From an uncultured Methanomassiliicoccales archaeon (GTDB taxonomy: Archaea > Thermoplasmatota > Thermoplasmata > RBG-16-68-12 > JAJISG01): 64,000 nucleotides of DNA. The stretch is taken from NCBI GenBank assembly GCA_964347325.1, contig CAYFYA010000008.1:23719-87718 (forward strand), in the 5' to 3' direction. Position numbers and translations under genes: made by a program. How positions within the stretch are numbered: the first letter of the stretch is position 1; each line of letters opens with the position of its first letter. The notes beneath the pieces were generated by a model. It worked only from the letters and a program-made list of their open reading frames with translations, did not search any database and had not been told where the DNA came from. Shown piece after piece: positions 39,941-61,955 of this stretch.

Positions 39941-42286
39941 CTAGTGGACTTCTCCGTGACCGTACCTGTGGGGGTCTGCGTCGAAGGTCTCCTTGCAGTG
40001 GGCGCTGCAGAAGTAGAAGACCACGCCCGCGTGTTCTGAGCTACCGTAGGCCGTGTCGGGATTGACGTCCATTCCGCAAACTGGGTCCTTCGCCATGGTG
40101 GGCCTCCTTTCCTCCCACTTCGTGATGGTGGGTCGGAATCTCTTCAGCAATAAAGAGTTAGCTACAACCGTTGTAGAGGAGAACCCCATGGCGGCCCCGG
40201 CGAAGATAGGGTCCAGCAGCAGGCCAACGAGGGGGTATAGTATACCGGCCGCCACCGGGATGAGGGCCGTGTTGTAGGCGAAGGCCCAGAACAGGTTCTG
40301 TCGTATCTTGGAGTACGTCCTGCGGCTGAGTTGAATGGAGGCCACCACATCCCGGAGGTCGTCCTTCACCAGGACGATGCCGCCCGCCTCCCTGGCGACG
40401 TCTGTGCCGCTGCCGATGGCGATCCCCACATCCGCTTGAGCGAGGGCTGGGGCGTCGTTGATCCCGTCCCCCACCATGGCGACGGAGTGGCCCTTAGCCT
40501 GGAGCTCCTTGACCTTCTCCGCCTTGTCCCCCGGAAGCACCTCGGCCATGACCTCCTCGATGCCAACCTGAGCGGCGACGGCCATGGCCGTCCTCTCGTT
40601 GTCCCCTGTCAGCATAACGGGCCGGATGTTCATGGCCTTGAGCGCCTCCAACACTTCCTTGGCGTGCTCTTTGGGCGCGTCGGCTACGGCGAAGACGCCC
40701 GCCAGTTCATCGTCGACGGCCAAGAGCATGACGGTCTTGCCCTGCTGCTCGAGACCCTGCATCGTGCTCTCCATCTTGGAGAGTTCGACCCCGCTCTCCT
40801 GCATCAGCTTCCGGTTGCCGAGGAGGACTTTCCTGCTCTTCACCTTGGCCCTGACTCCGTGGCCCGGTACCGCCTTGAACTCCTCAGGGTCCACAGCCGC
40901 GATGCCGACCTCCTCCGCCTTTCGCAGTATCGCCTGGGCTAGGGGATGTTCAGAACCCTTCTCGGCCCCTGCGGCGAATCCGTAGACCTCCTCCACCGGA
41001 AGGCCCACGGGCACGACGTCAATCACCTCCGGCCTTCCCTTAGTGAGGGTTCCGGTCTTGTCGAAAATCACGATGTCTAGCTTGCGGGCCTTCTCCAGGT
41101 GCTCCCCTCCTTTGATGAGCAGGCCATTCTCGGCCCCCATGCCAGTGCCGACCATGATGGCGGCTGGGGTAGCGATTCCCAGGGCACATGGACAGGCGAT
41201 AATCAGGACGGCCACGAAGACCGTCAGACTGAATGTGAAGGAGGAGAGCTCGACAGGGGGAGTCCAGAGCCCGGTTCCTATGAAGTACCAGAACAGGGCG
41301 GCGATGATGGCAACGCTGATGACCGCCGGGACAAAGTAGCCCGCAACGACGTCTGCCAACCTCTGGATGGGGGCCCTGGACTCCTGGGCCTCCTCCACCA
41401 GGTGGATGATCTGGGCCAGCGTGGTGTCCTTCCCCACCTTGGTGGCCCTGAACTTCAGCATCCCGGTCTTGTTGATGGTGGCGCCGATGACCTCGTCCTC
41501 CAGCCCCTTCTCCACCGGAAGGGACTCGCCAGTAATCATAGACTCGTCCAGGGCTGACTGACCCTCCAGGATGACCCCATCCACGGGGACCTTCTCGCCC
41601 GGACGGACTACGACGATCTCACCCACCTCCACCTGCTCTACTGGGACCTCGACCTCCTCCCCATCACGGATGACTTTGGCCATCCTCGGGGCGAGGTCCA
41701 TCAGCCGGCGGATGGCCTCCGAGGCTCTCCCCTTGGCCTTCTCCTCGAAGAAGCGGCCCAGGAGGATGAGGGAAATGATGAAGGCCGCCGTGTCGAAGAA
41801 GACCGCCTCGCTGGCGAAGAAGGTCGGGAGGAATGTGACGACGGTGCTGTACCCGTAGGCGGCGCTGGTCCCCACGGCGATGAGGAGGTCCATGTTGGCG
41901 ACGCGATTCTTGAGGGCGTCCAAGGAACCGCGGTAGTATCGCCATCCTGCGACGAACTGCACGGGGGTGGCGAGGGCGAAGAGGACGAAGTTGCGGATGG
42001 CGGGCTCGAGGATGGGCAGTATGCTAAGGATGAGTATGGGTATCGAGAGGGAGAAGCTCAGGACGAGGAGCCGCTTGAGATGCCCGAGCTCCTTCGCCGG
42101 CTCCTTGAAGGTCAGCAGGCAGGTCTCGCTGCAGAAGAAGTAGTCTTTGCCATCCACAGTGGCCACTAGCTTGACCTTCGTCTCGTCCACGTACATGCCG
42201 CACACTGGGTCCTTCGCCAAGACTACCTCCTTGTGGAGAGAAGACCCGGTCGTACTTAAGCGGTGTCTACACGAGGCCTGGGCCAT
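39941..42286 (-). CDS. copA: Heavy-metal (Cu+) translocating P1B-type ATPase with N- and C-terminal TRASH/YHS metal-binding domains
   Basis: '[11 protein letters not shown]' (CPC), 'DKTGTLT', 'GDGINDAP'. N-terminal '[16 protein letters not shown]' and C-terminal '[16 protein letters not shown]'. Confidence 0.9.
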
Positions 42287-42411: not shown

Positions 42412-42966
42412 ATGGCTAAGAAGGCCGATAGGGCGAAACTCAAGATTTGCCTCGCCGGTGAGGCCGCCGTGGGGAAGACCTCCCTTATCCGTCGATTCGT
42501 CTACGACCAGTTCGACGAGAAGTACACCGTGACCCTGGGGGCCAAGGTGACTAAGAAGACGGTAACCTTCAAGGGCAAGAAGGGCGACCTCGAGGTGGAC
42601 CTAGCCATCTGGGACATCATGGGCGAGAAGTTCCTTCGAGAACTGCTCCGGGAAGCCTATTTCTACGGCGCCCAGGGAATCCTCGCGGTTTGCGACGTCA
42701 CGAGGGCGGAGACCCTTGTCGACTTAGAGGACTGGAAGACAGCGATTGAGAAGGTAGTCGGGAAGGTGCCAGTGATCGTCCTGGCCAACAAGTCCGACTT
42801 GGTGGACGAGACGGTCATCGACGAGAAAGGCCTCAAGCTCTTCTGCGAAGAGTGGCACTGTCCCTATCTCCTCACCAGCGCCAAGGAGGGGGACAACGTG
42901 GAGAAGGCCTTCCAGGATATTGCGGACACGGTGCTGGAAGGCATCACCGCCGAACGCATTGCCTGA
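42412..42966 (+). CDS. Ras-superfamily small GTPase (Rab/Ran-like)
   Basis: G1 'GEAAVGKTS', G2 Thr in 'YTVTLG', G3 'WDIMG', G4 'NKSD', G5 'TSAK'. 184 aa, with no lipidation motif. Confidence 0.8.
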   Translation: MAKKADRAKLKICLAGEAAVGKTSLIRRFVYDQFDEKYTVTLGAKVTKKTVTFKGKKGDLEVDLAIWDIMGEKFLRELLREAYFYGAQGILAVCDVTRAETLVDLEDWKTAIEKVVGKVPVIVLANKSDLVDETVIDEKGLKLFCEEWHCPYLLTSAKEGDNVEKAFQDIADTVLEGITAERIA

Positions 42967-48334: not shown

Positions 48335-48394
48335 TGGGAGGCACCGCAAGCTTTACGGCGGAGGAAATCATCCAACGCGAAAGGGGAAGCGGAC

Positions 48395-48667
48395 ATGGCG
48401 AACCTGGTGCTGCTCGGGGCGGGAATGGCTGCCTTCGGCTTCCTTGTCGGCCTCGTGACCGGCCTCAGCAAGCAGCAGAACGCGGGCAGGGACTTCGTGA
48501 TAGCCCTCCTGGGAGGAGGCCTGATCACCCAGCTGTTCACGATGCTTGCGGGCATGGACGTGGACCTAGTCGCCGTTGCACTCCTGGGCTTCTCCGTAGG
48601 CGCTGTTGTCGGCATTGCGATCGGTCTCGCGTTCCGCGGTTCGATTCAAGCTCGCCTGGTCAGCTAG
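48395..48667 (+). CDS. Small 3-TM membrane protein
   Basis: Hydrophobic 90-aa ORF followed by a T6 tract. Confidence 0.4.
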   Translation: MANLVLLGAGMAAFGFLVGLVTGLSKQQNAGRDFVIALLGGGLITQLFTMLAGMDVDLVAVALLGFSVGAVVGIAIGLAFRGSIQARLVS

Positions 48668-48692
48668 GGACGGCGAATCCACTCTGTGGGCG

Positions 48693-48700
48693 TTTTTTGA
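48693..48700 (+). terminator. Oligo-T tract (GTTTTTTG); putative archaeal intrinsic terminator
   Basis: T6 run 26 bp after the stop at 48667. Confidence 0.3.
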
Positions 48701-48895
48701 GCGCACTTCAAGAGTCCAGAAAAGAAAGAAAAAGGGGAAGGGGGCCTCCCTCACAGGATGGAGACCCAGAAGGCTGCGACGCGGAGAGCCGCCAAGGCGA
48801 CCACCGCCAGGATTGCGATGCCCCTGAACACGGCCTTCACCTCCTTCTCCCTGGGTATTTGTATAGTGCCCCTCCTCGGCACTTGTTCAACCGGC

Positions 48896-49146
48896 TCACC
48901 TCGTAGGCGCTGGGTTCTCGGTCTTTCGGCCGCTGTTTGCCAGAGCCCTCATGGCCTTGGCGAGGGCGCTGTAGGTCCTCGCGGCCAGGCCCTTCCGGGA
49001 CTCGGTCCCGTCGGCCACCTCCTTCAGGAAGTATCCGGGTCCGGTGCCAGGCCCGTACTCCATCCGGAGGTAGCGTGAGAGCTCCGCGTACTGCTGCGGG
49101 CTTGCGCGTTCCTTCACGACGGCCTTGCCGTATTCATGCTGCATTT
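48896..49146 (-). CDS. Hypothetical soluble protein (83 aa from 'MQHEYGKAVV')
   Basis: A GGAGG lies 6 bp upstream of the ATG at 49144-49146. No recognisable domain. Confidence 0.35.
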
Positions 49147-49503
49147 CTTTCTGCCTCCTTGGCGATCCTTTCCGACCACCTAGGAGGAGGCAGGTGAGAG
49201 GGGGGTCATTGGCCTGCCGTAGTAGGTCCATAGTAACTACTATGGAGCGGTATCCGTTCCGCTTTGGCAGAAATACGGCAAGCCGATCGGAGAGGAGTCA
49301 CGCCTCGATGTTGCGGCAATCCGCAGCCTCACTAGGCAGTTCACTAACTCGTTGTCGCCCGACCGCAGCAGTAGACACCGTCGAAATGATGGGAGATCTC
49401 TCGGCGTACTCCAAAGGCCAGCCTACACCCAGAGAATGCAGTCAAAGCTGGCCGACGTAGGGCGTGCTAGGCACCAACCGTATCGCAAGGCTGCTTGCGA
49501 GCT

Positions 49504-49920: not shown

Positions 49921-50128
49921 TTAGCCTCCCCCGTGCCGATAGCCACCTCTATCGTATAAATAACTTTGTTAGCTTTCGCAGACTCCCTGCCCGACCGTCG
50001 AATTCCGTCTAGATGTCGACGTGGGCTGCGGCCGGAAGCCGTCTCCGGGCCTTGCCAACGGTTCCGAGAGCCTCCAGCCACAGGTGCAGGAGTCACGGTA
50101 TCTCCTGTGCCTGCGAACTGTTATCTAG

Positions 50129-52969
50129 ATGCATGACGGTCCAACAAGAGCGGGGGCCCTGGCAACGACCTTAGAAGCTCCAACTGTGAAGGACCGGATT
50201 TTGCTCCACCTCTTTGGCTATAGGCAACACGAGGAGGACTTCGCAGTCCCTCTGGTGATAACACAGGAAGGAATTGCCCGGGCGGTATGGATTGATGTCC
50301 GTCATGTGGTTCAGTACGTCCGTCCCCTCATGGAGGAAGAGTTCGTCCGGGAACGGATGGCACATATAGAGGGTGGGAGGAGAAGGCGCAAGGTCTACTG
50401 TCTCACGGACCGAGGGAAATCAAGAGCGCTGCAGCTCCAGAAGAGCCTAGCCTCCGAAACCGTGCGCGTTCGAGACGCTGAGGGTGTTCGTGAAGAGACG
50501 GTTGCGGAAGTTCTTCAGCGGCCTGGTGTAGAGACCTCGGTTCTGGAAGTCATACGCGAGTTCGTTCACTCAGGGGCAGTCGATGTTACGGCCCTCCAGG
50601 CTCCCTCCCCAGGTAGATACGTAGAGATGCTAGCTGACGCGCCGAAGGTCTCCGAGTTCCTCGGACGTGAGAGGGAACTTGAAACTCTCATGCGGGAAGG
50701 TGACGGGCCACGGATCTTCGTCATAAAGGGTGTGGCTGGGATCGGCAAGTCCACACTGGCAGCCAGGGTATGCGGGCTCCGAAGAAGCCGCCAGAATGTC
50801 TTTTGGCATAGAATCAGGTCGTGGGACACCCCCCACTCGATCCTCGCTGCCCTCGGCACCTTCCTCTCGGCCCTGGGAAGGCCCGGCCTGAAGACTGTCC
50901 TGGCGGAGGGTAGGCCCGAGATGGCTCCCGAGGTACTCAGAGAAGATCTTCCCGGCGTGAAGGCGGTGATAGTGATTGACGATGCCCACGACGCGAGTCG
51001 TGATGTGCTGGAATTCCTCCGCTTCCTGAAGGATGCGATTGCGGAGACCCCGGGGGTAACAGCACTGGTTATCACCCGACGGTCCCTTCCATTCTACGAC
51101 AGACGCGACGTGGTCCTCGACGAGATGGTTCAGGAGGTAGATCTAGAGGGTCTCGAGCCGGAGGTCGTCGAAGCAACAACCTCGGCTGAGGAGAGGGGTA
51201 GTCTGCCGATCGACCTGCTTCGTCACCCCCTCTTCCTGAAGCTAATGCGAGCCTCAACCGGAAGGAGAGCGCGTCGAGAGGCGCTAAGGGACTTCCACCG
51301 CTTCATCCAAGAGGCGATCTACTCGGAGTTGCCGGAGCCTGGGAGGAGGATGATGAAGATTGCCTCTCTATACCGAGTCCCAATCCCCCCAGAGGCCCTC
51401 CTCTTCGAGGCCACCTTGTCCCGCGACGTCATGCACGATCTGATGGAAAGAGCCCTTCTCACCGTAGTTGGCGAGGAGGACGTGGAAGTTCACGACACCA
51501 TTCGGGACTTCTTCGAGGCATTGCTCACGGAGGTCGAGAAGACGGAGTTCAGGGCCTTCGTAGTCCCACAGCTACGCGAACTAGCTTCCAAGGCTTGGGA
51601 CCAGGGAGATCTCTCCTACTGTATCAGCTGTCTCTCAAACGCCCTACACCTCTCCCCATCGGGATCGGAAGGATTAGCCGTCTATGAGGCCCTCGGCGAC
51701 GTCAAGGAGCGCATCGGTGACGTCGAAGGAGGCCTTGAGTCCTACAGGATGGCTATGGTTGCCGCCGGAGACCCTGAGTACTCGGCACGGCTCTACAGGA
51801 AGATAGGCACGGCTCTGGTCATTCGAGGAGAGATCCCTCCAGCCGCTAAGGCCGTGGAGGATGGATTCCAGGCCCTTGGACAAAGGGTCTGCGCAGAGCT
51901 CGGTTGGCTCAACCTGACCAGGTGTCGGGTCCTTGAGTGGCTTGAGCGCTGGGAGGAAGCCAAGGAGCACGGCATTGTCGCCTTGGAGACCTTCGAGGCC
52001 TTCGGAGAGCTCAGTGGCCAGGCCCAGGCCTATCTCCTGCTCGGACACATCGAAACGGGGATGCCTGGTGGGAGGCCCTCTCTGGCCCAAAGATACTTCA
52101 AGAGGGCGTTGGACCTGGCAGAAGCCCTTGGCGATGCTGCCGCCGTAGCGACGGTCCATCTGTTCCTCAGCAGTCTCTACGCCTTCCCCCTGGGAAATGT
52201 GGAGAAGGCAGAGGATCATCTGACGGCCGTCAGCCCCCTAGTCGACGACCTGGGAGACACCTTCAAGCGAATCAATTTCCTCTCGATGAAAGGGGCGTTC
52301 GACCTTCACATCAGGGCCGATTTCGAAGGGGCGGAGGCTCTCTTCGAGGAGGCAGCGTCGTTGGGCCGAAAACTCCGCAGCCCGGGTAGGGCAGCCTTCG
52401 CGGAATACCTACTCGGCTGGAGTAACTACTACCAGGGGAGGTTCGGCAAGGCGATGGATATGTTCAGGGAGTTCGCTGACGACATGCGAGAACGCGGTAT
52501 TCAACCGTCAGCAGTGGAGGCTCTGTGTATGGCCGCTGAGTGTGCTTTGCTTGAAGGTAACGTTGACGAGTTCCGTCGAATTCTGGTGGCCCTGAGGGAC
52601 CAGAGTCTCTCCCAAGGCGCTGAGGCTAGGCCGATGATGATGAAGGTGGTTGGTGCCATTGACCTGTTCCTCCGCGGCGACCTCGAAGCGTCCCGCACGT
52701 CCCTGGAGGAGGCAGTTGTGGCCGATGAGGGCGGGCTCGCATTTGACCCCGCTCTTCCCCACGTTGTGCACGCAGCCCTTTCACGGGCACTGGGGCGGGA
52801 GGAGGAGGCGACGGAGCACCTGAAAGCGGCGGCAAGCGCCTTCGAGGCCCTCTCCCGCACGGCCCATCTTAATCTCCTCGAAACCAGAGAGCAGTGTCTG
52901 GCTGAGACGCTCCACTCAACCGCAACTGGGTCCTCCGATCCGCCTACCCCAGCCGGTCGCGGCTCGTAG
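50129..52969 (+). CDS. STAND-class P-loop NTPase with an N-terminal PadR-like winged HTH and C-terminal TPR-like helical repeats
   Basis: wHTH 'RRKVYCLTDRGK'. Walker A 'IKGVAGIGKSTLAARV' and Walker B 'VIVIDDAHD'. Long alpha-helical repeat C-terminus. Confidence 0.75.
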   Translation: MHDGPTRAGALATTLEAPTVKDRILLHLFGYRQHEEDFAVPLVITQEGIARAVWIDVRHVVQYVRPLMEEEFVRERMAHIEGGRRRRKVYCLTDRGKSRALQLQKSLASETVRVRDAEGVREETVAEVLQRPGVETSVLEVIREFVHSGAVDVTALQAPSPGRYVEMLADAPKVSEFLGRERELETLMREGDGPRIFVIKGVAGIGKSTLAARVCGLRRSRQNVFWHRIRSWDTPHSILAALGTFLSALGRPGLKTVLAEGRPEMAPEVLREDLPGVKAVIVIDDAHDASRDVLEFLRFLKDAIAETPGVTALVITRRSLPFYDRRDVVLDEMVQEVDLEGLEPEVVEATTSAEERGSLPIDLLRHPLFLKLMRASTGRRARREALRDFHRFIQEAIYSELPEPGRRMMKIASLYRVPIPPEALLFEATLSRDVMHDLMERALLTVVGEEDVEVHDTIRDFFEALLTEVEKTEFRAFVVPQLRELASKAWDQGDLSYCISCLSNALHLSPSGSEGLAVYEALGDVKERIGDVEGGLESYRMAMVAAGDPEYSARLYRKIGTALVIRGEIPPAAKAVEDGFQALGQRVCAELGWLNLTRCRVLEWLERWEEAKEHGIVALETFEAFGELSGQAQAYLLLGHIETGMPGGRPSLAQRYFKRALDLAEALGDAAAVATVHLFLSSLYAFPLGNVEKAEDHLTAVSPLVDDLGDTFKRINFLSMKGAFDLHIRADFEGAEALFEEAASLGRKLRSPGRAAFAEYLLGWSNYYQGRFGKAMDMFREFADDMRERGIQPSAVEALCMAAECALLEGNVDEFRRILVALRDQSLSQGAEARPMMMKVVGAIDLFLRGDLEASRTSLEEAVVADEGGLAFDPALPHVVHAALSRALGREEEATEHLKAAASAFEALSRTAHLNLLETREQCLAETLHSTATGSSDPPTPAGRGS

Positions 52970-53381: not shown

Positions 53382-54656
53382 CTAGAGGAGGATTCTCCGC
53401 CGGCGGAGGAGGTGGTAAGCCACGGTCCCTCCCACCATCCCAATGACGTACCCGTACGGCAGCCCGATGATGATGGCACCCACGAGGAGGGCGATGGTTA
53501 GGTCCAGCTTGCTGTCCTTCACCTTAGCCACCAGCTTCACCAGGGCGAAGCCCTCAAAGACCAGAAGCACCCCGAGGATCGGGAAGGGGAAGACCTTCAC
53601 CACCTCGAAAATCACCCCACTGAAGAAGAGGCCGAGGACGAGGAAGATCGCACCGTAGATTACCACCGAACCGCCGGTCCGGGCGCCGAAGCGGTAGTGT
53701 CCGGCCATGCCGCCAGAGCCATGGCAGACGGGGACACCGCTGGCGAAGGGCGCTGCCAGGTTCATCAAGGAGTAGGTGAGTCCGATTCTGCGTGGCGTTA
53801 CGTCCACTCTCTGCGGGAAGTAGTCGCGGACGAGGTAGGCCGTGGCCACAATGGAGTTCGCTATGGAGAGCGGGATCTGGGGAAGGGCCAGCTGGATCCC
53901 ACCTTGGACGATGTCATTGATGGAAGGGACGTTGAACTTGGGCAGGGCGAATCCCACCCCGCCCAGGACGGCGCCGGAGTCGAATCCCTGGAACAAGGCG
54001 AGGCCGACTCCGGCGGCAATGAGTATGAGGGCAGGGGGGAATCTGCTCCCCCGTCCCAGGAAGAGCACCACGAGGATCCCGGCGAAGGCGACGACGTAGC
54101 CAATGATCGCCTCCCCCAGGGGAGCCCCGGGCTGCAGTATGAACCCGAAGGCGATGAGCATGAGCGTCAGGCCCAGGCCCAACTGGATGCCTCGGACGAC
54201 GCCTGGCGGGATGACCCTGTGAATCCAGTCGATGGAACGTGTCAGCACCAGGGCTAGCATCACCGCCCCGACCACGAGGCCGCCTCCGTAGAGCCAACTC
54301 GCCGAGGCGCCGGGGCCCAGTGCTATCATTATGGCGGCCATCGCCTTCAGGGGCTGCACGGGCATAGGGAGGCCATATCGGAGGGCCGTGAGGATCTGGA
54401 AGACACCGAACATCACAAAGGTGCTCGCCGCGTCCAAGCCGTTGATCGCCACCATCGCCAGGATGAGGGGCAGGTCCGTGCCGATATCGCCGAAGGCGCC
54501 GGCGATCTCTCCCCGGTTGAACAGGACCCGAGGTGCCTGGGGAGCCGCGGTCACGGGAGTCCACGATGGATTCCTCTCTAATAATATCGAGGTCCTCCTT
54601 GGGTCACGACTCGAGGACGGCCTTCCCACCAGTCTCCTTATGGGGAGCTTCCCCAC
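53382..54656 (-). CDS. MOT1-family (MFS-like) molybdate transporter with two internal repeats
   Basis: 'AGAFGDIGTDLPLILAM..GLPMPVQPLKAMAAI' closely matches the conserved MOT1 'GDLGTYIPI...PMPVQPMK' motifs. The start is uncertain. Confidence 0.6.
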   Translation of the reverse strand: MGKLPIRRLVGRPSSSRDPRRTSILLERNPSWTPVTAAPQAPRVLFNRGEIAGAFGDIGTDLPLILAMVAINGLDAASTFVMFGVFQILTALRYGLPMPVQPLKAMAAIMIALGPGASASWLYGGGLVVGAVMLALVLTRSIDWIHRVIPPGVVRGIQLGLGLTLMLIAFGFILQPGAPLGEAIIGYVVAFAGILVVLFLGRGSRFPPALILIAAGVGLALFQGFDSGAVLGGVGFALPKFNVPSINDIVQGGIQLALPQIPLSIANSIVATAYLVRDYFPQRVDVTPRRIGLTYSLMNLAAPFASGVPVCHGSGGMAGHYRFGARTGGSVVIYGAIFLVLGLFFSGVIFEVVKVFPFPILGVLLVFEGFALVKLVAKVKDSKLDLTIALLVGAIIIGLPYGYVIGMVGGTVAYHLLRRRRILL

Positions 54657-54976
54657 TTCGACGGGTAGCCGACGATGGCAACCGAGGTGTTAGTCGCCGT
54701 CATAACCGTATTCGATGCTCCACGAAACACCTTGCTAGCCCTTCCGCCCAATACCACCAAGCCAGCCTGGTCAAGGTGTTCCACATCGCAGCTCGCACGT
54801 CGAAATGTCGAAACCTAAACGGCGGTGGGGCCGGTGTCGAACAGGGTGACCTCGTGGTCGTGACCATGACTTCCTTAGCACGACCCACGTGGCCCACTTG
54901 GAGACCACCTTGGTCCTGCCTCATGCACGCCCTGTGACGGCGCTCTGGGGGAGTTCGATGCAATCCAGAGGTGGGC

Positions 54977-56392
54977 CTACTGAGTTGGTGTCAAAACACG
55001 GCAGTCGGAGCAATAGCGGTTGAGCACTGGAATCAGCGAGGTATACTCCTCTCCTAGAAGCTCGCCGACCCTCTCCAGCATTGCCTGGGGTGCTATCGGA
55101 GCCCCACATCTCTCACACGTGGGCGTGGCATCGCGATGGAGGGCGATTCTGCCTTGGTTCAATCGGCCGAGGTCCACAGTCTTGACGAGTCGAATCGCGC
55201 CGCGATGTCTCTCCGGGCACGGTGGGATACAGATACCGCAGGCCACGCACTTCATGGCATCGAACGTCAGGAAGACTCCTTCCACCTCGCTCCCATAGAC
55301 CAGGGCGTCTGTGGGACAGGCTTCTGCGCACATGCCACAAGTTGTGCAAGCCTCCCCGATTTCCACCACTCCCAGGGGCGATCGCTCGTGGGCGACGGTG
55401 ACTTCCTCCCCGCCGAACAGGTGCGCCAAAACCCTCAGGATTTCCGGAATCGCTTCATGACCAAAGGGCCGATCCAAAGATACCGGGGTCACGCCACGCG
55501 GCGGGTCCTGACTCAGGTCTGGGCCCAACAATACGAGATCCTCCGGGGCCCCGAGACTGGCGAGGAAATCCCGACAGAAGGCCACAGTCTCGGCGATCTT
55601 GTCCGCCTGACCTGCGGGGCACTCGATGGGACATCCCTGAATACCGACCGTACCCGCCCCCATCAGGAGAGGAGCGAGCATCCAACCCGGCGTCGCCATG
55701 CCCGCGCAAGGGAGTCTGAGCGGCATCCATCCCTCTGCGCCCTGCGGTGCGGGAGAGTGTGCACAATGGTACACGATGCCACGAGGCCCGTTCTCTCCAG
55801 AGATGAGGGCACCTACCTGTGCCTCCAACTGTGCGGGCGTGGTCGTGGGGTCGTGAACGGCTCCACACGGACAAGCAGTAACGCAGATACCGCAGGGTTC
55901 ACAGGTCGACTTGTCGAATCGAATCCGCCCCTCGGACCACTTGAGGGCACCCTGGGGACACACCTGGGTGCATACATTGCATCCGCCGCCGGCCGCACAA
56001 GCGGTACGGTCTACGGACGGGACTGCCCGATATTCGGTCCACCTGAGTCCGAACAAGGACCTCCTGCCGATCCTGGAGGATCTGTAAATCTTGGAGTGTT
56101 CAGGGCGGCTGCCGGCGAAGGCCCTCGCCCTCGCCACGGCGGCTGCCAAGAGGACCTTGCCCCTTTCCGGGGTGGCCTCCCCCAGGTGAACGATCTCTAC
56201 CCCCAGGGGATCGAGACCCGCCTTTCTGACCTCCGGCTGCAGTTCCGCCAGTGAGTAGTTCTTCGAGCAGAGGCCAAGGACCAGACGATCGACTTCCTTG
56301 CCGGCAAGGAGCTCGCTGGCTGTCCCCAAACGTTCGCATAGGTTCGGCACAACCTGGACTTCTGTGTGGCTCTCGCCTCCCCACTCAAGCAC
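54977..56392 (-). CDS. Iron-sulfur protein with multiple 4Fe-4S ferredoxin motifs and MvhD-like domain(s)
   Basis: Ferredoxin motifs 'CTTCGMCAEACP', 'CVACGICIPPCP', 'CEPCGICVTACP' and 'CNVCTQVCP'. MvhD-like 'VYHCAHSP...RLPCAGMATPGWMLAPLLMGAGTVGIQGCPIECPAG'. Confidence 0.65.
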   Translation of the reverse strand: MLEWGGESHTEVQVVPNLCERLGTASELLAGKEVDRLVLGLCSKNYSLAELQPEVRKAGLDPLGVEIVHLGEATPERGKVLLAAAVARARAFAGSRPEHSKIYRSSRIGRRSLFGLRWTEYRAVPSVDRTACAAGGGCNVCTQVCPQGALKWSEGRIRFDKSTCEPCGICVTACPCGAVHDPTTTPAQLEAQVGALISGENGPRGIVYHCAHSPAPQGAEGWMPLRLPCAGMATPGWMLAPLLMGAGTVGIQGCPIECPAGQADKIAETVAFCRDFLASLGAPEDLVLLGPDLSQDPPRGVTPVSLDRPFGHEAIPEILRVLAHLFGGEEVTVAHERSPLGVVEIGEACTTCGMCAEACPTDALVYGSEVEGVFLTFDAMKCVACGICIPPCPERHRGAIRLVKTVDLGRLNQGRIALHRDATPTCERCGAPIAPQAMLERVGELLGEEYTSLIPVLNRYCSDCRVLTPTQ

Positions 56393-56414
56393 ACGAGAGC
56401 TGCTCTCGCTCTCC

Positions 56415-57128
56415 TCACAGAGAAGTACGGTCGTCTCGATGTTCGTAGTCAGCCTCCTTGATTAGGAAGCTCAAGTAGTCCTGGTCGTGCCCTATGAAGG
56501 CGTCGGCGGTCTTGACGATTGCCCTGTAGAACGGTTCCTTCGTGGCATTCACGACGATCTCCGCGAACCTGGAGAACCAGGTGCCAAGGTGTTGCTCCAA
56601 GAAAACGAGCTCCTCTTTCACAGTCTCCTGGGCCTTTCCGAGGCCGCCATCCTTCCAGGCTTCCGCCTCCCTCTCGCAGAGGAAGGCCATCGCATCCATT
56701 TCGATGGACACGTGATCGGGCAGACCCTTGTAATCGGTGGGCAGGTCGAGACCCATCCTGGCATACTCTCCATCCAGCTGGGTGATTATAGCTGTTCGTA
56801 GGCCGGGCGGGGCACGGTAATATGACTCGTGGGGATGACAGATAGGACCCCGCGGACCCACGGAGAAGAGCCTCACATGCTCTTGCTGGATTTTCTTGGC
56901 GCTGTTCAGGCCCTGAAACGCTTCTCTTAGCGCTGCCCAGCTCGGATAGAATGCGAAGTCAGCCAAGTGGCGATCATCGAGGCGTTGCAGGGCGTCCTCA
57001 AGCAAAGCTACACGCTTCCCCTCAGGGTAGAGGAGGCTAGTCGCGAGGAAACGGTAGAGTCCGTGGCGGAGCTGCGCTAGCGCTCCCCCATCCAGCTCAT
57101 TCTCCAGAACTTTCCGGTAGGATTTCAT
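56415..57128 (-). CDS. TorD/DmsD/NarJ-family molybdoenzyme maturation chaperone
   Basis: All-helical 237-aa protein with a TorD-like N-terminus 'LAQLRHGLYRFLATSLLYP'. Located inside the molybdoenzyme operon. Confidence 0.6.
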   Translation of the reverse strand: MKSYRKVLENELDGGALAQLRHGLYRFLATSLLYPEGKRVALLEDALQRLDDRHLADFAFYPSWAALREAFQGLNSAKKIQQEHVRLFSVGPRGPICHPHESYYRAPPGLRTAIITQLDGEYARMGLDLPTDYKGLPDHVSIEMDAMAFLCEREAEAWKDGGLGKAQETVKEELVFLEQHLGTWFSRFAEIVVNATKEPFYRAIVKTADAFIGHDQDYLSFLIKEADYEHRDDRTSL

Positions 57129-57315
57129 AGACCACCGCTGACAGGAACATGACTAGGAAGCCGAGGATGAAAATACCTGGAGCGAACGGAACGATTGGGT
57201 TGCTATGATCGACGTTGCTTGGGGGGAAGCCCCAAGGGGCTGCGAAGTAGAAATAGCTCACGATCATGAGCGCTGCACCGACAACGATGAGGAGAGCAGT
57301 GAGGAGTCTACGCAT
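57097..57315 (-). CDS. Small 2-TM membrane protein with a conserved 'PWGFPPS' motif (72 aa from 'MRRLL', preceded by a GGTGA RBS)
   Basis: Overlaps both the NrfD gene and the TorD gene. A paralog lies at 62697-62912. Confidence 0.5.
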   Translation of the reverse strand: MRRLLTALLIVVGAALMIVSYFYFAAPWGFPPSNVDHSNPIVPFAPGIFILGFLVMFLSAVVYEILPESSGE

Positions 57316-58627
57316 CTGTACTATCACCTCCATCTGACATGGTTGTTCTTTCTTCTGGCAAGGGCATAATCGGGAAGAGCTTCATGAAGAGGCCGATGAG
57401 GAGGGCTCCGAAGGCGAAGAGACCGACAATGATCCCGTATTCCACCCAGGTGGGCGTGTATACGCCTATCTGGTACGGGAGAAGGCTCCCGTGAGTGAGC
57501 GAGGGTACGACAACGATGTACCGTTTGGCGATGGCGGCGACGTTGACCATCAGTCCGATCGCCACGAGCACGGGGATGCTCCATCGGCCAGTCAGGGCAA
57601 GAGTGACGATTAGGAAGAGCGGAATGACCAAGAATGCGACGGAGAGCCAGTAGACCCCCGCATACTCGCCGAAGAGGAGAGCGTTCACCAGAAGTGTTTC
57701 TTGAGCGTGCCCTTGGTAGGTCGCCGTAAGGAGCTCGACGAGCATGAAGTACAGATAGACCGCGATGAGGACCATCAGGTACTTTCCGAGGGATTTGAAT
57801 ACGTCGCCATTGATGTTTCTCTTCTCGCCCATGGACCAGCGCGCGATGGCAATAAGAACGATGAGTGCCCCGAGCCCGGAGATTCCCGCCAACACCACGA
57901 ACGCAGGAGCCTGCAGGGCGCTGTACCAACCTGGTCGTCCCGCCTGAAGCCCGAAGACGAGGCCCAGCGTAGAGTGGGCGGCCACCAGAATGGGGATGAT
58001 GGCCACGGCGAGCCAGAAGCTGACCCGACGATGTCGCTTCTGCTCTTCGGGAGTATCGCGATATCCAGCCGCCAAGAAGCGATGGAGTCTTTGCAGACGA
58101 CCTGGTGTCTTCGCGAGAACGGCGGCATCCTTCCTGCTGTCAAGGTAGAGGTAAGTCAGGCTTGCCAGAAGGTAGCCGGCGATGACTAGAACGAAGGTCC
58201 CGAAGAAGGGGGACTGCGGGCGAGCGTATGTGAAGAGGTTGACGATCCCGACGAGAGGGCGACCAAGATCGGGTATCACGGCAAAGGTGGCGAGGATTAG
58301 AGCAACGACAGTCAGCACTTCCGCGATCCGGGCCACTGGGCGAAGATGCTTCAGATCGAGTAGCCTGATCATGGCTGCCATCGTGATGCCCGCGAAGCTG
58401 ATCCCGACGAAGTAGATGTCGAAGGATATGTAGAGGCCCCATGGGGAACCTCCCATCGTTCCTGTGTCCCTCAGACCAGTGACGACTAATCCGAAATTGA
58501 CCTGGACCAACCAGGCAATGAAACCGAACAGGGCAACCGCGGCGGAGACCAACATGAAGATGATCCAACGCCAGGTGAGCCTGCCGACGCCGTACGGCAA
58601 ACGTGCCACAGCAACTTCAGCCGTCAT
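57308..58627 (-). CDS. NrfD/PsrC-family polysulfide-reductase-type membrane anchor subunit
   Basis: Eight to ten TM helices. Its start codon overlaps the stop of the upstream FeS-subunit gene (ATGA at 58624-58627). Confidence 0.8.
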   Translation of the reverse strand: MTAEVAVARLPYGVGRLTWRWIIFMLVSAAVALFGFIAWLVQVNFGLVVTGLRDTGTMGGSPWGLYISFDIYFVGISFAGITMAAMIRLLDLKHLRPVARIAEVLTVVALILATFAVIPDLGRPLVGIVNLFTYARPQSPFFGTFVLVIAGYLLASLTYLYLDSRKDAAVLAKTPGRLQRLHRFLAAGYRDTPEEQKRHRRVSFWLAVAIIPILVAAHSTLGLVFGLQAGRPGWYSALQAPAFVVLAGISGLGALIVLIAIARWSMGEKRNINGDVFKSLGKYLMVLIAVYLYFMLVELLTATYQGHAQETLLVNALLFGEYAGVYWLSVAFLVIPLFLIVTLALTGRWSIPVLVAIGLMVNVAAIAKRYIVVVPSLTHGSLLPYQIGVYTPTWVEYGIIVGLFAFGALLIGLFMKLFPIMPLPEERTTMSDGGDSTDA

Positions 58628-59367
58628 AGTGTGACCTCCTCTTTCACCCTTTCAATCTGTCTCATCTCGATATTAGGCGGAGACCCCGCGAGGTAGAAGA
58701 CGCTGGGATCAGTACCCACCTCCTCCAGCAGCTGGAAGTGCGGCTTCTCCACGAGCAACCTGGACACCTCGCTGTCCGGATCTTCGGCGTCTCCGAAGTG
58801 GAGGACGTGGGTTGGACAGGTCTCCACGCAGGCGGGCAACAGTCCCTTCTCGACCCGTTGCACGCAGAAGGTGCACTTCTCGATGACACCCTTGTAGTGG
58901 CCGCCACCCGCGATGCGCCGCTGCTCCGGGCCGAACGCAGTGTCCAGATCGGGATTCTTGTAAGGGGGGACCGCGCCCTCGCTGACTCCCGCCAGATCGG
59001 GATCGTCCCATGCCAAGTAGTAACTCCTCACAGGCTCCTTCCAGTTGAAGTAGTTCACGCCGTAGGGACAGGCCACCTCACAGTACCGGCAGCCAATGCA
59101 GCGGTCCCAGTCCGTGGCCACGAGCCCGTCGATTCGCTTGTAGCGGGCCCCGACGGGACACACCTTCACACAGGGCGCGTTATCGCAGTGCTGACAAGGC
59201 CTGGGGAAGAACGAGATGCGCGTGTCTGGATAGGTCCCCTCCTCAAGGCGCCACACGTACATCCAGAAGTTCGCCTGGGGGGTGTTGTTCTCCACCTTGC
59301 ACGCTTCCATACAGGCGCGGCAACCGGTACATCGATCGAGGTCGATCGTCATGACGTACTTGGCCAT
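58624..59367 (-). CDS. 4Fe-4S ferredoxin-type electron-transfer subunit (PsrB/DmsB-like)
   Basis: 'CTGCRACMEACK', 'CQHCDNAPCVKVCP', 'CIGCRYCEVACP' and 'CTFCVQRV'. Confidence 0.9.
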   Translation of the reverse strand: MAKYVMTIDLDRCTGCRACMEACKVENNTPQANFWMYVWRLEEGTYPDTRISFFPRPCQHCDNAPCVKVCPVGARYKRIDGLVATDWDRCIGCRYCEVACPYGVNYFNWKEPVRSYYLAWDDPDLAGVSEGAVPPYKNPDLDTAFGPEQRRIAGGGHYKGVIEKCTFCVQRVEKGLLPACVETCPTHVLHFGDAEDPDSEVSRLLVEKPHFQLLEEVGTDPSVFYLAGSPPNIEMRQIERVKEEVTL

Positions 59368-61955
59368 CAGTCCTCACCCCCTGCCTTGGAGACCTGAACC
59401 TTCACGTGATATGACTGATCCGCCGTGTTGGAGACGTAGCCCTCGCCGGTGAAGAAGAGCTCGTTGGGTGAGGGACCCTGCCCGTCGTTCGTGGGGTTCC
59501 TCCACATTCCGAAGTGGTGGGGCATGCCCACAGTGTCCGGTCGAATGCTTTCAACGAGGGTCGCTCGCACCTTCGCCCTCCTCGTTTCCCCCGTCACAGC
59601 GTTCTGGGCTTCGACCCAAACCAGGTCCCCTTCGCGGATGCCCCGCGCCCGGGCGGCCTCCGGATTCATGTCGAGCCGCTGCTCCGGGGTCAGTTCCGCC
59701 AGAAGCGGGATGAAGCTGGTCCGGGACTGCTTGTGCTCGATGAGCTTGTAGCTGATCAGGTAGAGGTCGTAGGCCGACGGGGACCCCTCCATCGTGGGAT
59801 CTCGCCACACGGGGAACGGCGTGTAGTCCTGCCAGTAGATCTGCTCCACGCCCTTCGCCTTCATCTCATTCTGGTACCGCAGCAGGCTCTCCCCGTAGAG
59901 GCGGTGCAGGGCGCCCCCGAAGGGCGGGCCGGCGGCGTAGCCGTATCGCGCCGAGGGGGACAGGGGCCCCTTGATCCACACGCCGTTGTTCTCGAAGAAT
60001 TCGATTCCACCGCTCAAGCCTTCCATCAAGGACCATTGATGGAAGATGTCGCGGACGGAAGGCTTCGTGTCGAGGTCGAGGAGATACGGATCTTCGAGCC
60101 CTACCGCAGCATTGATCCGATCGATGTAGCCTCCGACTCCATAGAGGACACCCATCTTCTCGGCGAGATCCAGATAGATGTCGATCTCCCCCCGCGATTC
60201 GAAGAGGGGATCCATCGGCGGGAGACGAAGCGTCTTGGCGTCGATGTACTGGTCCGATACGGAGCTGACGCCCTCGTACTTCTCGATGGTCGCCGCTGGC
60301 AGCACGACATCGGCGAAGTAGTCTGCGGTCTCTGACAGCCACGGATTGATGTCGACGACGAAGTTGAGCTTCTTGTACGCGTCAATGAAGTCCTTCTGAG
60401 AGAGGAAGGAGGTGAGGGGATTGGCCATGTGCAGAATCATCACTTCCGGCAGGTCGTCTACCCCGTACTTGGCGGGATCGAGCATGACCTTGGCCGCGAC
60501 GCCAGGGAGGGCCGAGTTGATCGGGTAGAACTTGCTATTCTTGAGGTAGAAGTTGTACGGGGGGTCCCCAATCGTAATCTCATCTAGGCCCGCATAATTG
60601 CTGTGAATCTTCCAGGTGAAGTCAATCATGGTGCCCCCTACCGCTCCCATGGCTCCGAGGAGCATTTCGACGAGGATCATGGCCCGAAGCGCCTGGAATC
60701 CGAGCTCTTGCTGCGCCATGTGATAGGCCATGATGGCGACGGGTCGGTAGGGGATGTCCTCCCCCTCCAGGTTAATCGTGCTGCCGATTAGGGCGTTCTC
60801 GCCCATTTCGAGGGCCACTTGTCTGATTTGCGCCGCCGCGACGTCGCAGACTCCCTCCGCCCATTCGGGGGTGTACGAGGCCACGTGCTCTGTGAAGAGC
60901 TGGAAGGCGGGCTTAACAGTCTCGGCGCCGACCGTGTACTCACCCTCTAGGGCGGGCACAGCGGCCGGGTCATCATGGTCCATTGGAGCTGAGGTCACCG
61001 TGTCCCAGACCTGCTCCTTGTCGCCAACCCGATAGAAGGAGCCGTCCTCCCCCACCAGGAAGGGCGCGTTAGTGTAGGTCGAGAGGTAGTCCGTGTCCAC
61101 ATACCCGTTCGCAATCAGCACGTTGCAGAGAGCCAGGGCCAGCGCCATGTCAGTCCCGGGTTTGATGGGAAGCCAGACGTCCGCAAAGTGGCCGGCACTC
61201 CGGAGTCGCGGGTCGATATGAACCACCTTGATGCCCCGCTCCCGGGCCTCCATGAGTTGCTGAGGCCAGGTGATCCAGCAGAACTTGTTTCCGCCCGCAT
61301 TGGTGATGTTCCATCCCCAGGAGAGGAGGTAGCGGGTATACTTGAAATCGGGATGGAGCACCCCATGCGGTCCAATGGTGTACTCCGCCGCTCGATAGCC
61401 GGCGTCGGAACAGTAGCCGCCGTGGCCTAGCTTGCTGGCGCCTATCGCCCCGACAAAGGCCGTATCGTAGAAGGCACCGGCCTTGCTCCTTCCTTTCTGC
61501 CAGAGTACGAGACTCGGGTCGCGATCCCTTACCGTGTTGACTTGCTGCGCCACGAGGTCGAGGGCTTCGTCCCAGGAGGCTTCCCGCCATTGGCCGGTGA
61601 CGCCTTTCTCGTTCGTCCGGATGAGAGGGGTCTTGACCCGGTTAGGGTCATAGAACGCCATAATCTGTGCCTGGCCCTTGGGACAGAGGGTGCCGAGGTT
61701 CCTCGGATGGTCTGGGTGACCCGCAAGGGACACCACCCTGCCGTTGAGTCTCCGGGCGATCATGCCGCATTCCTGCTTCCCTATCCAGCAAGTTGTGGGG
61801 ACGAAATCCTCGGTCGCAGGGGCGGCATCCTTGGGGGTGGTGGGTCTCAGAATCGAGGGAATGCCCAGGTTCCAAGGCGAGACTTGGGTTGCGATCGCGG
61901 CGCCCGCGGCGGTGGCTCCACTCAGCTTCAGGAACGTTCTTCTCGAATGTTTCAC
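59367..61955 (-). CDS. Molybdopterin (bis-MGD) oxidoreductase catalytic subunit with a Tat signal; Psr/Phs/Ttr/Arr clade
   Basis: Tat motif 'SRRTFLKLSGATAAGAAIA'. FS0 region 'CWIGKQECGM...GRVVSLAGHPDHPRNLGTLCPKG'. 862 aa. Confidence 0.9.
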   Translation of the reverse strand: MKHSRRTFLKLSGATAAGAAIATQVSPWNLGIPSILRPTTPKDAAPATEDFVPTTCWIGKQECGMIARRLNGRVVSLAGHPDHPRNLGTLCPKGQAQIMAFYDPNRVKTPLIRTNEKGVTGQWREASWDEALDLVAQQVNTVRDRDPSLVLWQKGRSKAGAFYDTAFVGAIGASKLGHGGYCSDAGYRAAEYTIGPHGVLHPDFKYTRYLLSWGWNITNAGGNKFCWITWPQQLMEARERGIKVVHIDPRLRSAGHFADVWLPIKPGTDMALALALCNVLIANGYVDTDYLSTYTNAPFLVGEDGSFYRVGDKEQVWDTVTSAPMDHDDPAAVPALEGEYTVGAETVKPAFQLFTEHVASYTPEWAEGVCDVAAAQIRQVALEMGENALIGSTINLEGEDIPYRPVAIMAYHMAQQELGFQALRAMILVEMLLGAMGAVGGTMIDFTWKIHSNYAGLDEITIGDPPYNFYLKNSKFYPINSALPGVAAKVMLDPAKYGVDDLPEVMILHMANPLTSFLSQKDFIDAYKKLNFVVDINPWLSETADYFADVVLPAATIEKYEGVSSVSDQYIDAKTLRLPPMDPLFESRGEIDIYLDLAEKMGVLYGVGGYIDRINAAVGLEDPYLLDLDTKPSVRDIFHQWSLMEGLSGGIEFFENNGVWIKGPLSPSARYGYAAGPPFGGALHRLYGESLLRYQNEMKAKGVEQIYWQDYTPFPVWRDPTMEGSPSAYDLYLISYKLIEHKQSRTSFIPLLAELTPEQRLDMNPEAARARGIREGDLVWVEAQNAVTGETRRAKVRATLVESIRPDTVGMPHHFGMWRNPTNDGQGPSPNELFFTGEGYVSNTADQSYHVKVQVSKAGGED

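Follow-up and report, generated by a model that had tools for sequence, protein, structure and literature searches.

A PH0952-like STAND protein of an uncultured Methanomassiliicoccales archaeon: a probable signal-gated transcription factor and the small genes that accompany its family

Is a large archaeal STAND ATPase to be regarded as a regulator of transcription or as a component of antiviral defence? The question is raised by an open reading frame (ORF) of 946 codons located in a 64,000-nucleotide stretch (hereafter the window) of contig CAYFYA010000008.1 (GenBank assembly GCA_964347325.1, positions 23,719 to 87,718) from an uncultured Methanomassiliicoccales archaeon. STAND ATPases owe their reputation mainly to switches of immunity and cell death; those understood as transcription factors are a few bacterial proteins (MalT, AfsR and GutR). 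The comparative analysis described below, which is based on homology, suggests that the gene probably encodes a signal transduction ATPase of the PH0952/MalT type, that is, a signal-gated transcription factor.

The 946-codon ORF of the initial annotation was confirmed at exactly its position (coordinates of all features are given in Table 1). Since an identical product (P0001) is present on the NCBI record, where a later TTG start (50201) reduces it to 922 aa, and since the best 120 homologs, mostly 900–970 aa long and 38–62% identical, align with it over the full length, the ORF represents a conserved gene and not a chance reading frame. The close relatives all originate from uncultured Thermoplasmata or Methanomassiliicoccales-labelled metagenome-assembled genomes (MAGs) from soil and groundwater, as judged from the named sources and one scanned genome per GTDB species. 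A haloarchaeal source, at first suspected because the protein is acidic, was discarded in view of these homologs. The GC content of the gene (0.59–0.62) is the same as that of the rest of the window. The gene is a transcription unit of its own, with a divergent neighbour upstream and, 19 nt past the stop codon, a convergent gene of the CMD family downstream.

The STAND core is supported by profile, fold and motif evidence. When a profile of 117 family members was compared with all PDB sequences, the best match was 6mfv (PH0952 of Pyrococcus horikoshii), whose nucleotide-binding, helical and winged-helix domains were covered with an E-value of 1e-42, while a second stretch fell on the TPR residues 408–600 of the same entry (E 6e-5). 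The next STAND-core chain, that of NLRP1, was matched at E ∼0.006 over a short P-loop stretch, and AfsR at E 1e-4 in the TPR region only, which places the core nearer to PH0952 than to other solved STAND proteins. In agreement with this, an AlphaFold model built from the family alignment (mean pLDDT 92.6) had 6mfv_A as its best Foldseek match in the PDB (4e-15), followed by Avs3. Pfam models AAA_22 (residues 193–314), AAA_16 (176–303) and TPR_12 (three stretches; 57 bits) scored above their cut-offs and NACHT, NB-ARC, nSTAND and TPR_MalT below them; in distant relatives NB-ARC and ATPase_2 exceed the Pfam cut-offs, adding to the support for the three-domain core fold.

The motifs expected of such a core are present as well. 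The Walker A and Walker B sequences correspond to the patterns GxxxxGK[ST] and hhhhD[DE], and their residues G201, G204, G206, K207, D284 and D285 are invariant in the 117 sequences; the nucleotide-binding domain also holds FLGRERE (residues 177–183) and TRR (316–318). The GxP motif of the helical domain is represented by HPL (366–368), in which P367 and L368 are invariant and which is preceded by R365 in place of the glycine in this subfamily. The winged-helix domain carries an MHD-like VHD (454–456) with an invariant H455, aligned with FVHD of PH0952. The helices that follow, together with the TPR_12 matches and the TPR stretch of 6mfv, make up a C-terminal sensor. Thus the STAND NTPase core, the TPR-like sensor and the overall order of winged helix-turn-helix (wHTH), STAND and repeats, with the MalT/AfsR logic proposed for it in the initial annotation, are all upheld, and the structure prediction that had been recommended as a check yielded the STAND fold.

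The N-terminal domain had been described as a PadR-like wHTH, and here the description holds in part. A wHTH fold was found, and its best structural matches are the DNA-bound MarR, AspA and SmtB; the PadR assignment itself is not supported, as the fold suits PadR, MarR and ArsR about equally and Pfam PadR (PF03551) scores 13.7 bits for the whole protein and 16.7 bits for the domain against a cut-off of 27, with sub-threshold PadR matches in 28 of 32 relatives. The probable recognition helix takes in RHVVQYVRPL (residues 58–67), and the wing, GGRRRRKVYCLTDRG (residues 82–96), is nearly invariant and highly basic (RRRRKVY). This wing and the matches to DNA-bound regulators point to DNA as the partner of the domain. 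Between the wHTH and the nucleotide-binding domain lies a conserved linker domain of 55 residues, composed of a beta-hairpin and three short helices, for which the domain limits of PH0952 leave no space.

How far this architecture extends was seen when 1.84 billion cluster representatives were searched with the profile: 1179 clusters (50% identity) scored at E<1e-30. They comprise about 50 close clusters of full length, a second tier that is also full-length, and a third, which shares profile positions 3–470 (wHTH, linker and NOD) and differs in the sensor. Among ten distant relatives sampled, an N-terminal HTH signal was seen in nine, one relative adding DUF835, and no nuclease, protease, TIR or other death-effector domain was found in the STAND protein or in any of the ten; a search for relatives with nuclease or protease N-termini, suggested earlier as a check, thus returned none. 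Many MAGs hold at least two paralogs, sometimes in tandem, which fits an expanded regulator family and a conflict system equally.

Since the order of its parts is that described for PH0952 (wHTH, core, arm, TPR sensor), the protein belongs to a known kind: it is a PH0952-like archaeal STAND regulator of known architecture and, taken on its own, ordinary. Its crystallographers (Lisa et al. 2019, PMC6468293) called PH0952 a MalT homolog and predicted that it is a transcription factor, in which a wHTH effector at the N-terminus precedes NOD, arm and TPR. The two proteins differ in that the one described here is ∼200 residues longer and has the additional 55-residue domain and a longer sensor, in their identity of ∼19% in the Foldseek alignment, and in their hosts, Thermoplasmata here and Thermococcales there. 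The crystallized construct of PH0952 was devoid of the N-terminus, and a search with its 293-residue segment taken from the HMMER alignment scored no protein.

Other known systems are more remote. Escherichia coli MalT, on which the mechanistic model below draws, shares the STAND core, the arm and the helical-repeat sensor; it activates transcription, oligomerises in response to ATP and inducer, and binds DNA through a C-terminal LuxR-type HTH. The Pfam scan of the window protein revealed no C-terminal HTH, its C-terminus being TPR; the NCBIfam MalT model (NF003420), with its cut-off of 537 bits, gives only 13.6, and TPR_MalT remains below its cut-off, so that the protein falls outside the MalT family. 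AfsR and the large SARP regulators of Streptomyces (PDB 8k60, 8jke) also combine an N-terminal DNA-binding winged helix with a STAND ATPase and TPR, but neither the OmpR-type wHTH (Trans_reg_C) nor BTAD of AfsR was detected here (Pfam, E≤1), and the PDB profile match is confined to the TPR region. Avs3 (PDB 8dgc) and other Avs proteins resemble it in the STAND core and TPR-like sensor, whereas their N-terminus is a nuclease or another effector and they recognise phage proteins. Finally, PadR, MarR and ArsR proteins (AF1382, MepR, AspA, SmtB) are small stand-alone dimeric repressors, while here the corresponding fold is a module of a 946-aa switch.

What is added to this known kind is a set of cis-elements and small partner genes, both conserved, through which the family becomes accessible to experiment. 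The initial annotation had placed the gene next to membrane proteins of unknown function, a description that missed the conserved partners of the family, namely two small ORFs it did not mention. Although the neighbourhoods of the STAND relatives vary widely, these two ORFs, named SP and SP2, recur. Among the 31 loci retrieved by STAND homology, HMM search placed SP (∼82–93 aa, basic, motif Y.R.EYG) beside the STAND gene in 22; in 17 of the loci SP2 (∼60–70 aa, motif W..I..Y...KL...IDYW) is encoded on the opposite strand, located at the stop codon of the STAND gene or overlapping it. Two gene orders were observed: in one, SP is divergent at a fixed distance (∼145 or ∼182 bp) and SP2 is convergent; in the other, SP2 and then SP come after the STAND gene, both on the opposite strand. 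In locus L015 each of two tandem STAND paralogs has its own SP and SP2, and SP accompanies the STAND gene even on a contig where the identity of the STAND protein is no higher than 31.5%. Because the linkage outlasts both rearrangement and duplication, it indicates that the STAND gene and the small genes form a functional module, with SP as a candidate target or partner of the STAND protein.

Neither SP nor SP2 matched any entry of Pfam, NCBIfam, PADLOC or the PDB profiles, and the SP homologs in a set of 5.8 billion proteins are all unnamed and 75–93 aa long. The C-termini of SP fall into clade-specific types, one clade sharing a ...P-T-R tail and another ...E-V. A ribbon-helix-helix identity of SP, considered from the sequence pattern alone, found no support. 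In this lineage the SP gene occurs in multiple copies, the two source metagenomes containing at least four paralogs.

The arrangement in the window can be understood by comparison with L005, the closest long relative (54% identity), where the order is radical-SAM gene, STAND paralog 1, SP2, SP, membrane-protein gene and STAND paralog 2; in L007 it is radical-SAM, STAND, SP2 and SP. The window keeps the frame of L005 minus paralog 1 and SP2, and its STAND gene is accordingly equated with the second paralog. The interval between the radical-SAM gene and SP, which in L005 (3175–6305) and L007 (1228–4156) accommodates the extra STAND paralog and SP2, is 561 bp in the window (48335–48895). This suggests that one copy of the module was lost, or never gained, in the window; a remnant of the paralog or of SP2 was sought in the interval by tblastn (E≤10), and none was found.

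The region upstream of SP carries a non-coding element that has been retained while the proteins are only 31–45% identical. In the clade of the window it takes the form AGTARTTACTATGGACCTACT, holding the palindrome CCATAGTA-N2-TACTATGG; the copy in front of the window SP is the only one in 64 kb, against 0.05 expected, which is significant. When 241 million metagenome records were scanned for exact matches to the 21-mer, seven sites were found, all seven located 80–100 nt upstream of an SP gene. Every SP copy of this lineage has the same upstream region of ∼100 nt, consisting of the 21-mer/palindrome, a C-rich tract and a hairpin, loop GGAAAG, that would sequester the Shine-Dalgarno (SD) sequence. 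The leader downstream of the element folds well (z −3.1) and ends in the SD-pairing hairpin, for which 3 of 19 pairs have compensatory support. For both the SP leader and the region upstream of the STAND gene Rfam gave noise only, and the idea of a molybdenum-cofactor riboswitch was dropped. The short motif GGACCTACT, tried as a window-wide operator, gave 21 matches against 14.7 expected and was rejected as not significant.

In other clades the equivalent position is occupied by different palindromes, CAGTGTACCCACTG or AGGAGTCCC-N3-GGGACTCCT, and the STAND recognition helix varies in step with them, reading DVRHVVQYVRPL, YVQHVRQFINPL and ELRHLSQYLRPL in the three clades. An operator co-evolving with the wHTH that reads it would look like this.

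A second, AT-richer element, of the AACTGTTATCTAG type (consensus ∼AAC-N-T-W-CTTA-S-G), belongs to the STAND gene itself. It is kept ∼57–70 nt upstream of the KERIL codons in the family genes of divergent loci, including loci whose reading frame cannot reach so far upstream, and it is retained though the STAND proteins are only 40–50% identical; equivalents occur in L005, L007, L011, L012, L016, L019 and L027 and in the type I loci. In the window and in L005 this element adjoins or contains the annotated ATG, and the 946-aa start is doubtful because ATG 50129 abuts it. If the element is a promoter, translation would begin at GTG 50186 (927 aa); the TTG start at 50201 (922 aa) used by NCBI would truncate helix 1. 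The domain architecture does not depend on the choice, since residues 1–19 are unstructured in the AlphaFold model. Farther upstream lies an inverted repeat (Table 1), the half-site of which is similar to the palindrome AGGAGTCCC/GGGACTCCT seen at other loci of the family.

Instead of, or besides, being regulated targets, SP and/or SP2 could bind to the TPR sensor and thereby set the switch, as its protein ligands or as anti-activators. Precedents are provided by MalT with MalY, MalK and Aes, and by peptide-sensing HTH-TPR regulators. The linkage of both small genes to the STAND gene through changes of gene order would suit such a role, as would the frequent binding of peptides by TPR domains, the clade-shared tails of SP and the lack of any known family for SP and SP2. 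Some SP copies of this lineage, however, are found far from any STAND gene, and SP2 is missing from the window; this alternative is accordingly regarded as possible, although unlikely.

The STAND core, Avs3 as the second-best fold match, the multiplication of paralogs (often tandem) in many MAGs and the accompanying small ORFs would also fit an Avs-type antiviral or NLR-like conflict sensor, in which the TPR part reads an invader protein and the wHTH, perhaps with SP and SP2 as effectors, responds. PADLOC, however, returned nothing below E 0.01 for the STAND protein and was equally blank for three relatives, SP and SP2, no phage homolog of the STAND protein was found, and the effector domains of defence proteins are lacking in the protein and the ten relatives, as noted above. 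Moreover, the neighbours are housekeeping genes, the composition is native, and synteny with metabolic genes is kept in the lineage. Defence was therefore rejected as the main explanation, and a sensor of this sort is considered improbable. With HTH signals at the N-termini, no nuclease or protease and no PADLOC or phage matches, the signal-gated regulator is favoured over a defence protein, as the initial annotation had also judged from the sequence.

Whether this regulator serves the adjacent respiratory/molybdenum locus, as had been proposed, is less clear. To the right of the STAND gene the window encodes the CMD-family protein, a MOT1 molybdate transporter, Fe-S proteins, a NarJ-like chaperone, NrfD and a TAT-signal molybdopterin oxidoreductase. 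Loci L037, L038 and L044 contain a 100%-identical start of this oxidoreductase and hence appear to continue the genome of the window; they carry genes for an AbrB/MazE-domain protein, MobA, MoaA, MoaD, MoaE, MoaC and MogA, followed by a second SP and moeA. The second SP (74% identity) has the same upstream element and stands back-to-back with moeA, and two more SP paralogs in these metagenomes adjoin moeA or moa genes. In L008, whose STAND protein is 46% identical, SP is followed by moaE, moaC, the CMD gene, mobA and moeA. In this lineage, then, the STAND gene and SP copies flank a molybdenum supercluster of ∼20 kb, with SP genes at both of its ends.

Because SP copies lie back-to-back with moeA and beside moa genes and MOT1, molybdenum-cofactor genes may belong to the regulon. 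The earlier proposal is no more than circumstantial: the STAND and SP genes do adjoin molybdenum genes in the lineage of the window, L005 and L008, but most relatives have none nearby. The link is lineage-specific, could be inherited synteny, and is better treated as a lead than as a finding. The fuller picture, in which the wHTH-STAND-TPR protein, SP and SP2 would constitute a conserved three-gene signalling module, the STAND factor binding the palindromic element of SP-type divergent promoters and being perhaps tuned by SP and SP2, and in which the module would have been recruited in this lineage to the control of molybdenum-cofactor synthesis and molybdenum-dependent respiration, is speculative and rather doubtful; the SP element between SP and moeA at one end of the supercluster and the STAND gene at the other end are in keeping with it. 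The same neighbourhood (the NarJ-like chaperone, MOT1, the oxidoreductase and the moa genes), together with the fact that some winged helices do not bind DNA, could be read as a sign of a non-transcriptional scaffold or chaperone, its winged helix making protein or RNA contacts and its TPR part organising the maturation of a molybdenum enzyme or another complex, but given the nearly invariant basic wing, the matches to DNA-bound regulators and the missing molybdenum linkage in most of the STAND family, this is very improbable.

For the signal-gated regulator, a course of events modelled on MalT, APAF1 and PH0952 may be outlined. At rest, the protein would be an autoinhibited monomer, its core closed with ADP bound and locked by contacts with the arm and the sensor. 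Binding of a ligand, either a small molecule or a protein, to the TPR sensor would allow the core to open, to exchange ADP for ATP and to oligomerise, so that several wHTH heads would gather on repeated or palindromic DNA sites and transcription would be switched. Comparative genomics suggests the gene's own promoter and the SP gene(s) with the conserved upstream element as the likeliest targets, possibly joined in this lineage by the molybdenum-cofactor genes.

Several observations weigh against this reading. Neither DNA binding nor a ligand has been demonstrated for any member of the family, PH0952 included, and the wHTH signal is, at the level of sequence, under the Pfam thresholds. In the window, SP2 is not present according to HMM search, and SP is not adjacent to the STAND gene, from which it is separated by a 984-bp gap with a membrane-protein gene; the window SP may even be a leftover of the lost paralog that L005 and L007 carry. 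Its upstream element might serve simply as a promoter, or might belong to a structured RNA leader. The joint variation of palindrome and helix covers only three clades and is confounded by phylogeny, so that shared ancestry could yield it. Beyond the lineage of the window, L005 and L008, no molybdenum gene occurs within 6–8 kb of the other STAND loci.

Table 1. Features of the STAND locus and of related loci. Positions refer to the window unless an L-numbered locus is given.
Feature	Position	Strand	Remarks
STAND regulator ORF	50129–52969	+	ATG start, 946 codons + stop; alternative starts GTG 50186, TTG 50201
N-terminal wHTH, residues 20–108	50186–50452	+	
Alpha/beta linker domain, residues 109–165	50453–50623	+	AlphaFold model; conserved in distant relatives (profile positions 3–470)
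P-loop nucleotide-binding domain, residues 172–340	50642–51148	+	Pfam; profile match to 6mfv
Walker A GVAGIGKST, residues 201–209	50729–50755	+	
Walker B VIVIDDAHD, residues 280–288	50966–50992	+	
Helical domain and STAND winged-helix domain, residues 341–465	51149–51523	+	6mfv alignment; invariant residues; AlphaFold model
Arm and TPR sensor, residues 468–934	51530–52930	+	∼26 helices; Pfam TPR_12; 6mfv TPR stretch; AlphaFold model; TPR fold matches
Candidate promoter/operator AACTGTTATCTAG	50116–50128	+	Abuts annotated ATG; judged by inspection
Inverted repeat CAGGAG-N9-CTCCTG	50087–50107		Just upstream of ORF
SP gene	48896–49144	-	82 aa; pI 9.8; motif Y.R.EYGPG; identical to NCBI-called P0126
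SP leader hairpin	49154–49187	-	Pairs anti-SD (CCUCC) with GGAGG ribosome-binding site; conserved
SP upstream element	49221–49245	-	21-mer AGTAGTTACTATGGACCTACT (49221–49241) overlapping palindrome CCATAGTA-N2-TACTATGG (49228–49245)
SP copies with upstream region	48896–49260; L037 5776–6124; L042, L045, L046, L047	- (window)	
SP2 examples (among others)	L001 10742–10945; L006 10784–10990; L005 6141–6305; L007 3983–4156	-	
Predicted membrane protein, 138 aa	49504–49920	-	Between SP and STAND gene; common to closest relative L005
Radical-SAM protein, 521 aa	46769–48334	+	Conserved left neighbour (L005 1710–3227, L007 6–1094; 66% identity)
Molybdenum supercluster, ∼20 kb	53382–61955, continuing past right end		L037/L038/L044

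Several other genes were noticed in the course of the analysis. Two paralogous helical mini-ORFs of ∼57–65 aa precede the molybdopterin oxidoreductase gene (L037 11123–12291) and follow the pattern ...L..C...L...V.....L.E.LRD.EAELIS.LQ.TI..VME..; the window equivalent lies upstream of the oxidoreductase, beyond 61955. The 184-aa small GTPase encoded at 42412–42966 (+) matches Pfam Ras at E 7e-35, with Roc also a good match, and represents a Ras/Rab-like protein in a Thermoplasmata-type archaeon. At 39941–42286 (-) a probable copper exporter is encoded, a P-type (E1-E2) ATPase that has YHS domains, including one at the C-terminus, and a weak TRASH-like match near the N-terminus.

In the case of PH0952 the structure has been solved, while the ligand, the DNA site and the regulon are not known. 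The Thermoplasmata family provides points of attack not available for PH0952: a pair of small genes inherited with it, a sharply conserved 21-nt element with its palindrome, the joint change of palindrome and helix in three clades and, in one lineage, a link to the molybdenum cofactor. If the molybdenum-recruited three-gene module proved true, no regulon of a STAND transcription factor from archaea would have been defined before it, and the regulator would be of a new, molybdenum-linked type. With these points of attack, the question of what an archaeal STAND regulator targets becomes testable with recombinant protein, without a cultured host.

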